A stretch of 11,013 nucleotides of DNA from a virus (taxonomy: Duplodnaviria; Heunggongvirae; Uroviricota; Caudoviricetes). The stretch lies in IMG/VR virus record IMGVR_UViG_2778261708_000011. One strand, 5' to 3'. Shown piece by piece: positions 3,686 to 3,709 of the stretch (the stretch's first letter is position 1; each line of letters opens with the position of its first letter). The position numbers were made by a program, and so were the translations under genes. The notes beneath the pieces were generated by a model. That model did no database searches. It was not told the origin of the DNA and worked only from the letters and a program-made list of their open reading frames with translations.

Positions 3686-3709
3686 CCGATATGGGAATTC
3701 CCATATCGG
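3686..3709. repeat. 24-bp perfect palindrome CCGATATGGGAATTCCCATATCGG
   Basis: Exact reverse-complement symmetry over 24 bp, centred on GAATTC, in the non-coding gap between the binding-protein gene and the hok locus. Confidence 0.9.

Follow-up and report, generated by a model that had tools for sequence, protein, structure and literature searches.

What does a perfect 24-bp palindrome represent when it lies in the gap between an adhesin-type gene (paa) and hokD of a lambdoid prophage? The stretch analysed here, called the window throughout, is the 11,013 nucleotides of IMG/VR record IMGVR_UViG_2778261708_000011 (Caudoviricetes), and the palindrome, CCGATATGGGAATTCCCATATCGG, occupies positions 3686–3709. 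Sequence comparison suggests a stranded remnant: the hairpin from which it would derive normally sits inside the coding sequence of a subfamily of KilA-N genes, and we put the probability of this explanation, taken as a whole, at roughly 0.75. What the window holds is the canonical KilA-N hairpin as a solitary copy that is non-coding and assigned to neither strand.

An earlier, sequence-only reading had described the element as an exact 24-bp palindrome of non-random origin, and both statements are borne out. It is a perfect 12 + 12 bp inverted repeat with no spacer, and consists of the exact 22-mer of the canonical core (CGATATGGGAATTCCCATATCG) plus one further pair; the canonical hairpin within it has a 10-bp stem (CCGATATGGG/CCCATATCGG) and an AATT loop. 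No such palindrome arose in 200 dinucleotide-preserving shuffles of the window, and no second match to it exists in the window even at three mismatches. Its exact 20-mer core recurs in at least 120 IMG/VR contigs (129 occurrences among the matches listed) and in hundreds of complete E. coli genomes. Folded as a single strand, the palindrome forms a stem of 10–11 bp with the central AAUU (RNA) or AATT (DNA) as the loop, with a folding energy of −18 to −19 kcal/mol for the RNA and of −10 to −11 kcal/mol for the DNA (z about −3.3 to −4.4). Since a perfect palindrome folds with its central four nucleotides as the loop, the earlier remark that it has 'no loop' was wrong and is no argument against a hairpin.

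KilA-N coding sequence around the palindrome

On the plus strand, divergent from hok, positions 3679–3719 of the window match KilA-N coding sequence over 41 nt at 85–88% identity (BLAST against complete E. coli genomes), and the palindrome frame reads GAT ATG GGA ATT CCC ATA TCG GAA TGA, that is, DMGIPISE followed by a stop codon. The DMGIPIS frame thus ends in TGA and is non-coding in the window. Downstream of the palindrome, the window sequence GAATGAATTCAG is homologous to GAATTAATTCAA of intact KilA-N genes, where it encodes E-L-I-Q. Alignment A3 finds the shared GGAaTnAATTCA downstream of the palindrome in the window and the same leftover of KilA-N coding sequence in three other solitary, or orphan, copies; orphan copies, the window's included, keep 15–25 nt of KilA-N coding sequence on this side. 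Together, the 41-nt match and A3 indicate that the window retains about 41 bp of a KilA-N gene, the rest of which has been replaced.

The intact counterparts are found in related prophages, where the palindrome stands at codons 58–64 of the KilA-N gene. In E. coli strain 103, as in a Proteus phage, it reads GAT ATG GGA ATT CCC ATA (T/A)CG, encoding D-M-G-I-P-I-(S/T), and the peptide stands within the ..ELSRDMGIPISELIQSFKGG..QGTWVHP.. stretch of Pfam KilA-N proteins. The strain 103 gene (L004, 2336–3109, plus strand) encodes a WP_000200358.1-type protein and lies divergently upstream of hok/sok in the nin region; the Proteus gene (L008, 2837–3601, plus strand) adjoins cI. The C-terminal halves of both proteins match BstA, an abortive-infection protein of prophages (tblastn, ~32% identity; PADLOC, E = 3e-21 and ~1e-21). 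Full-length genes of this subfamily occur in 139 of 5,426 complete E. coli genomes, with O157:H7 absent among the matches listed.

Of the 129 exact 20-mers listed from IMG/VR, 31 lie in long open frames and are read in the DMGIPIS frame; a few of these (L026, L035, L073 and L086) are not in KilA-N proteins. The 20-mer matches include at least eight divergent KilA-N lineages whose flanking codons differ freely, and a contig of only 21% G+C that carries the exact 20-mer uses CCC for proline. A search for a solved KilA-N–DNA complex on which to place the motif found only weak matches to yeast Mbp1; the alignment (E ~0.3) leaves a gap over the seven residues RDMGIPI, which fits a tolerant loop into which the hairpin could have been inserted.

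Some KilA-N genes carry more than one hairpin or stand in arrays. Two have it twice in tandem (..DMGIPIPGISSLKSDMGIPIS..; L104 at ~3240–3300 and L391 at 1939 and 1999). The L104 protein, from a contig of 21% G+C, has a Cys/His-rich N-terminus, a KilA-N middle and a T5orf172-like tail, the outer domains being judged by eye. On a further contig (L297, ~2700–7750) tblastn matches KilA-N domains seven times in tandem; these are apparently paralogous genes, and two of them hold differing perfect or near-perfect GGAATTCC palindromes.

How the window copy came to stand alone can be pictured from its relatives. The sequence-only reading had proposed a search for further copies in the host genome and related prophages, and a 106-bp query around the palindrome matches in 898 of the 5,426 complete E. 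coli genomes. The neighbour on the side away from hok is paa, a 34-aa open reading frame (ORF) or an ORF6N gene, and in one class the palindrome lies inside the KilA-N gene; paa now occupies the side where related prophages have the rest of the KilA-N gene, the 34-aa ORF or the ORF6N gene. Across the five prophage contexts of alignment A1 the 22-bp core is invariant and both flanks diverge or are unrelated. What the window lacks of the KilA-N gene has given way to the hok promoter region on one side and to the paa cargo on the other.

The association with hok itself is loose. In one A1 class, 18 bp have been inserted between palindrome and hok promoter. We also listed 120 hok loci in a scan anchored on the hok promoter, 85 of them newly fetched: among these 85 there were no perfect palindromes, 74 loci lacked any and 10 had a damaged one. 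The remaining ~35 were taken as perfect, having been fetched earlier via a perfect palindrome, so that about 62% of the listed loci are without palindrome, 29% have a perfect one and 8% a damaged one (~75/35/10). Damage in 10 of the ~45 carriers (~22%) is consistent with decay. A 1-bp arm deletion (CCG-TATGGGAATTCCCATATCGG) is present in 7 of the ~45 (e.g. L002, ~2530–2553), and this lineage is evidence that some orphan copies decay. An estimate that put the variability of the palindrome five-fold below that of the spacer was withdrawn and is not relied on, because the underlying set was enriched for perfect copies fetched via the palindrome itself. The window palindrome is no hok-specific feature.

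Self-complementarity inside intact KilA-N genes

The IMG/VR set had been ascertained by the 20-mer sequence itself, and three samples were therefore built independently of the palindrome. The first comprises sixteen genomes from about ten phyla found via the peptide alone (among them Enterobacterales, Verrucomicrobiota, Rhodobacterales, Brachyspira, Bacteroidota, Spirochaetia, Dehalococcoidia, Armatimonadota and Cyanobacteria), the second eighty relatives found via the patterns DMGIPIS or QGTWxHP, and the third about 100 more found via a DNA back-translation of QGTWVHP.

First, all sixteen peptide-found genomes read GAT ATG GG[AG] AT[TC] CCC ATA TC[GAC], at local G+C contents of 31–61%; one of them has T for C before GAT, matched by A for G at the mirror position. 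Second, in the palindrome-independent samples the third base of codon 2 is almost always complementary to the third base of the proline codon, as in the pairs ATG..CCC, ATC..CCG, ACC..CCG, ACG..CCC, GTC..CCG and GCG..CCC. Amino acid changes are mirrored as well: V..T is encoded by GTC..ACA, A..A by GCG..GCA and T..V by ACG..GTT. Third, distant members with unrelated peptides have stems of 7–12 bp at the same codons, with loops of 3–8 nt; examples are AVLISTA (GCGGTGCTAATTAGCACCGC), VVQICTT (GTTGTGCAAATTTGCACAAC), MCEIRTS, VVHIRTT and SLNLSDR. Lastly, in alignment A5 (72 distinct sequences) 83.6% of cells are paired compared to 66.8 ± 0.9% after shuffling, a value reached in none of 500 shuffles. 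Double-sided changes number 99 against 27.7 ± 4 in shuffles, the covariation score is 0.404 against 0.142, and shifted registers leave only 31–46% of cells paired. Counted as Watson–Crick pairs, 8.1 of 10 are observed, compared to 6.0 upon partner shuffling and 5.4 upon synonymous recoding. Hairpin-bearing KilA-N genes range from coliphages to the metagenome-assembled genomes (MAGs) of giant viruses.

These alignments show that the constraint in intact genes falls on self-complementarity rather than on sequence identity, and point to the nucleic acid itself as the target of selection. Arms and loop length vary and the GGAATTCC apex is mostly kept, which favours a folded structure, be it hairpin or cruciform, over an operator with a fixed dyad. 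The element in these genes, as far as comparison can predict, works as a folded stem-loop with a stem of 9–12 bp and, usually, the GGAATTCC apex.

Several points weigh against this account of a selected hairpin and its stranded remnant. The shuffle controls for A5 ignore shared ancestry, and RNAalifold alone predicts just the four best-covarying pairs of that alignment. Sense and antisense folding energies are equal on average, so that there is no strand bias, and the mismatches of near-intact hairpins comprise 6 of G.U type, 9 of A.C type and 18 transversions. The collection scans (with the 20-mer, the QGTWVHP DNA and the hok promoter) are arbitrary slices, their counts being those of the matches listed. 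For the solitary copies, there are hints of continuing constraint: between the paa-type and the 34-aa-type lineage the 22-bp core has no differences and the adjoining ~44 nt have about seven (A1), a contrast with roughly P = 0.02 under equal rates; in two independent variants the changes are confined to loop bases, and one non-coding copy has a compensated change of an A-T to a G-C pair. The hok promoter and mRNA start, from which the position of the window copy is reckoned, are placed by analogy and from the sequence, not mapped.

Solitary copies and the possible roles of the element

Outside KilA-N genes the canonical core stands in about 13 flank classes among the matches listed. Together with two sister variants (GATATCGGAATTCCGATATC and GAAACGGGAATTCCCGTTTC) it is found in about 55 distinct non-KilA contexts at 26–66% G+C, of which a few are truncated or divergent KilA-N genes (e.g. 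L381 and L382). In phages of 63–66% G+C there are in-frame DIGIPIS copies in the interdomain linkers of primase-helicases, sometimes with a second, differing variant a few codons away. One copy lies between a stop codon and the next ribosome-binding site and is flanked by an 11-bp repeat. A phage of 65% G+C (L357) carries five different N8-GGAATTCC-N8 palindromes at 3818, 5151, 5178, 5205 and 9538; one is placed 45 nt before a 420-aa capsid-like ORF, and three form a tandem array of 27-nt period within the 120-nt gap directly after the stop codon of that ORF.

Further details of individual copies were noted. The in-frame D(I/M)GIPIS of L335, L344, L356 and L073 lies in Pro/Ala-rich linkers of replication proteins, and the partner variant in these high-G+C linkers, often present a few codons off, reads ..DKGIPVS.. 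or ..VTGIPVS... An intergenic copy on a contig of 56% G+C (L026, 4920–4957) has the canonical 20-mer at the centre of a 38-bp perfect palindrome (CCACGGATCGATATGGGAATTCCCATATCGATCCGTGG).

Lytic Dhillonviruses, in which no KilA-N gene was detectable, differ in copy number: HK578 and SSL-2009a have none, 'rolling' and many others one, and PNS1 two. The copies (alignment A4) stand at 3001–3023 in L006 and at 3001–3023 and 3055–3077 in L007; L477 and L478 are also in the alignment. The repeated unit is 54 bp long and consists of a 21–22 bp palindrome and a 32–33 bp direct duplication, the latter covering the last codons of a helicase(-primase) gene, including the stop codon, and a downstream box. 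Among the BASEL phages, judged by the length of the matched region, TheodorHerzl apparently has no copy and GeorgBuechner one; the exact palindrome is present in KarlBarth and PaulFeyerabend. Downstream of the L006 copy extends a non-coding stretch of ~500 bp in which, at 3060–3260, the box GCATTGGTTGCC recurs and GCGGGACA(A) is repeated six to seven times, an arrangement that looks like an origin or iteron region.

Solitary copies are thus multiple and dispersed, with presence/absence polymorphism. No mobilising enzyme, such as a transposase or a REP-associated tyrosine transposase (RAYT), was seen for them, and the flanking duplications are irregular, being 32–33 bp, 11 bp or absent; around the window palindrome a target-site duplication was looked for and none was found. 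About 10 copies lie within 30 nt after a stop codon, a rough ORF-based count that is noisy, especially at high G+C, and therefore only a weak hint, gene calls around solitary copies being crude. Solitary copies arise in two ways, through loss of the surrounding KilA-N gene, the window being a case in point, or through clean insertion.

What the hairpin does has to be judged separately for the element as a class and for the copy in the window. Given its conservation from coliphages to giant-virus MAGs, any role should rest on one of two things, the gene's own product or universal nucleic-acid physics. Among roles for the class, we rank first, tentatively, recognition of the folded hairpin by the KilA-N protein, in the sense of self-recognition or autoregulation; second comes a generic RNA hairpin that protects mRNA ends or pauses ribosomes, which is possible; and third a self-maintaining or selfish palindrome, which we regard as doubtful. 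The window copy is likeliest vestigial, at somewhat better than even odds, and if it still acts it would act as a hairpin.

The best-surviving rival to the stranded-remnant reading is the selfish one, itself doubtful. Here, the palindrome would do nothing for the phage; template switching during replication would copy one arm onto the other, and copies would spread by illegitimate insertion at tolerant sites. Solitary copies do lie in insertion-tolerant places (intergenic gaps and protein linkers), they form insertion polymorphisms with flanking duplications of unequal length (32–33 and 11 bp), and they resemble the small palindromes of Rickettsia, which enter genes in frame. The damage in ~22% of the hok-linked copies listed also agrees with it. 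The notion of a 'recombination-related' site in the sequence-only reading may be partly right: the palindrome marks mosaic joints and occurs as an insertion polymorphism. On the other hand, neutral upkeep should not hold a 20-mer unchanged across about ten phyla and 31–61% local G+C against codon bias, nor a hairpin at the same codons after a complete change of peptide; no transposase or RAYT-like partner is evident, and stems of 10–12 bp are short for efficient hairpin-driven events. Quasipalindrome correction by template switching is an established mutational route in E. coli (PMC7202029): it could turn single-arm mutations into symmetric double changes, yielding apparently 'compensatory' changes and keeping copies perfect, but it is a mutational process without a function and leaves the depth of conservation unexplained.

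Less probable again is that the palindrome serves as a live decoy or self-immunity site. The hairpin would be the cognate ligand of the KilA-N domain that it helps to encode, a mark for self-immunity or autoregulation, and phages that captured the 20–24 bp as a decoy might escape abortive infection by BstA-type KilA-N defence proteins. For the class as a whole we consider this unlikely, and equally so that the window copy is a decoy or immunity site against KilA-N-type proteins from other prophages. Several observations favour it: the intact E. coli and Proteus genes pair the KilA-N with the BstA C-terminal domain; lytic Dhillonviruses have 0, 1 or 2 clean insertions yet no detected KilA-N gene; orphans outnumber intact genes in E. 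coli (~577–898 versus 139 of 5,426 genomes); differing variants occur side by side within single phages; and conservation from coliphages to giant-virus MAGs is most simply explained if the gene's own product is involved. BstA loci moreover contain a DNA element for self-immunity, aba, which overlaps the gene, suppresses the cognate protein if replicating DNA carries it, and needs a high copy number to work in trans (Owen et al. 2021, PMC8585504). This makes any element inside a BstA-like gene an attractive immunity candidate, and the hairpin resembles aba in being a short cis element inside a prophage gene of KilA-N type that could travel without the protein. Against this, the one aba that is mapped, that of BTP1, is a 63-bp sequence at the start of the gene with terminal CCCGCC direct repeats and no dyad (PMC8585504), whereas the hairpin lies at codons 58–64 and the window has lost the gene altogether. 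BTP1 BstA has a divergent N-terminal domain with no DMGIPIS motif and no palindrome. The hairpin goes with the KilA-N domain whatever the C-terminal domain, and its free variation in arms and loop is hard to square with sequence-specific recognition. Identity with the published aba was rejected on sequence and architecture; the resemblance is a functional speculation, not family membership.

That the window copy acts as an RNA stem-loop is improbable. The proposal covers mRNA-end protection, processing or ribosome pausing and, in the window, a barrier or insulator in transcripts crossing the paa–hok gap, so that read-through from paa or the early operon is kept from hok. It draws on the very high stability of the RNA hairpin (z = −3.6 to −4.4), on solitary copies that often follow stop codons (the Dhillonvirus helicase gene, L035 and L036), on the four L357 copies around the capsid-like gene, and on in-frame copies in inter-domain linkers, which are plausible places for ribosome pausing. 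In these respects the element is like 3' stabiliser hairpins or terminators, being a stable stem-loop; unlike terminators, it has no U-tract, and its best-conserved copies are in the middle of coding sequence. The sequence-only reading was right to set an intrinsic terminator aside: no U-tract or T-run follows the stem on either strand, the terminator scan of the window called only the hok and paa terminators, and a terminator reading was accordingly rejected, as was a known RNA family (no Rfam match at gathering thresholds, with the best permissive matches far below threshold). Further difficulties are that the window copy stands beyond paa's own terminator, that there is neither an excess of G.U over A.C mismatches nor a strand preference, that the count of ORF neighbours is noisy, and that a generic hairpin leaves the GGAATTCC apex and the in-gene conservation across bacterial and eukaryotic viruses unexplained.

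Least likely is a dedicated operator, whose two identical half-sites would be read as duplex by a dimeric DNA-binding protein controlling the hok promoter or paa. In its favour are a perfect dyad with its centre close to −57 of the inferred hok promoter, a distance to that promoter that is fixed in most carriers, and a core conserved between hok-linked lineages with differing spacers; but most hok loci with the same promoter lack the palindrome, one carrier class has the 18-bp insertion in between, the identical sequence is found in coding DNA and in unrelated phages without hok, relatives keep complementarity through compensating arms around loops of 3–8 nt rather than sequence, and no regulator gene adjoins the palindrome in the window. 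The operator or partition-type site of the sequence-only reading is thus a misfit, and the window copy should not be annotated as a hok operator. Its suggestion of a 'restriction-related' site found no support either, and an EcoRI site was rejected: GAATTC is not invariant, perfect variants having GGGGATCCCC or GGATATCC at the centre and distant ones CTAATTAG or CAAATTTG.

Prophage setting and kinship with known elements

In the window lies the part of an enterohaemorrhagic E. coli (EHEC) lambdoid prophage that runs from immunity to Q, with the palindrome in the P-to-Q (nin) region. The 601 bp around it are 99.8% identical to O157:H7 chromosomes, where the neighbours are annotated hokD and paa. 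The sequence-only reading described the flanking genes correctly, with hok on one side and a binding-protein gene on the other. Following the segment from the immunity end, a cI-like repressor (8520–8927) is on the plus strand, and YdaT (7681–8232), a DnaT-like O (6669–7784), P (6215–6880) and DUF1627 (5447–6028) are on the minus strand. Next is paa (3829–4587, minus), annotated as an AcfC-family adhesin and with the solute-binding-protein fold SBP_bac_11; its intrinsic terminator (3822–3809, minus; CGTCCTTCAGGACG then TGGATTCTTT) lies between its stop codon and the palindrome. Beyond hok, all on the minus strand, are DUF968 (1841–2890), RusA (1469–1828), Q (783–1478) and, downstream of Q, three tRNA genes (323–572). 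These tRNAs are Arg-tct, Arg-tcg and one with a CAT anticodon (Met or Ile2), typical of EHEC lambdoid prophages; on the tRNA side the best-matching O157 strain (L001) has a different arrangement.

A complete hok/sok locus occupies ~3245–3640 on the minus strand, with the hokD coding sequence at 3338–3493, a mok-like ORF running to 3550, sok at 3491–3640 (Rfam match, RF01794) and the stem of the hok intrinsic terminator, called by the terminator scan, at 3269–3252. The minus-strand block GAGTTAAGTAGGATTGCTGCGGGTGCTTGAGGC supplies a −10 element (TAGGAT, 3652–3647), a weak −35 element (TTTGCT/TTGCTG, ~3675–3669) and, where the Rfam sok match ends, a start near 3640; the block GAGTTAAGTAGRATTGCTGCGGGTGCTTGAGGC of this region is conserved in alignment A1. 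We take these to be the hok promoter (3647–3675, minus, a weak match) and the mRNA start (~3640), and presume the 5'/3' pairing elements likewise, by analogy with hok of plasmid R1; a promoter scan of the window made no call at this place. On this placement the palindrome spans about −46 to −69 of the inferred start, so that the sequence-only reading was right in bringing it next to the hok promoter and wrong in placing it on the promoter.

Two further features lie on the paa side. A second, G+C-rich hairpin with a REP-like look (ATGCCGC TGGC GCGGCAT) is found at 3775–3792, between the paa terminator and the palindrome. Upstream of paa, a frameshifted fimbrial-protein pseudogene is annotated in the reference strain (window ~4750–5320; L001 8949–9482), which gives the paa cargo block the look of an inserted, decayed adhesin cluster, with the replication genes on one side and hok on the other.

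Among known systems, repetitive extragenic palindromic (REP) sequences and bacterial interspersed mosaic elements (BIMEs) of enterobacteria, the Rickettsia palindromic elements and MITEs (miniature inverted-repeat transposable elements) form short dispersed hairpin repeats that often follow stop codons and sometimes lie in frame. The KilA-N hairpin is like them in being dispersed, placed after stop codons or in tolerant protein regions, and polymorphic for presence or absence. Unlike them, it measures 20–24 bp, occurs in phage and giant-virus genomes and has its best-conserved copies in one gene family; unlike REP sequences and MITEs, it shows no RAYT or transposase and has duplications of irregular length. 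As with the cis elements of hok/sok (RF01794), the window palindrome immediately adjoins a complete hok/sok locus; it differs from them in standing outside the hok mRNA and Sok, 46–69 nt upstream of the inferred start. The HK022 Roi protein, a regulator encoded in the nin region, reportedly binds a site within its own gene and would be a precedent for a nin-region regulator of the Bro/Rha/KilA group that recognises a site in its own coding sequence. Roi is not, however, a KilA-N protein of the hairpin subfamily, and hairpin binding by KilA-N proteins is only putative. HK022 was absent from the phage records with the palindrome, whether listed or tallied; the Roi site serves here as a precedent only.

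Literature searches by sequence and by KilA-N together with palindrome found no description of the hairpin, the few papers combining KilA-N with 'palindromic' being on other topics; a wider search brought up no KilA-N paper among its top results. Hairpins conserved within coding regions are a kind already known, and so are small palindromes that are dispersed; what appears to be new is this particular hairpin, how deeply it is conserved, and that it exists both inside a gene and as a free 20–24 bp copy. By itself, the copy in the window is probably a harmless relic, and the short 'hypothetical' ORFs and mosaic joints around such palindromes are by-products, which is a warning for annotation. 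What KilA-N domains recognise is a question of long standing, and the element as a class gives a concrete, inexpensive way to approach it. For self-immunity or decoy DNA in BstA-like defence it provides a candidate that can be tested, and nature supplies sets of phages that differ only in copy number. If that role were true, the hok-side copy in EHEC prophages and the Dhillonvirus insertions would be orphan immunity elements against abortive infection of the KilA-N type.

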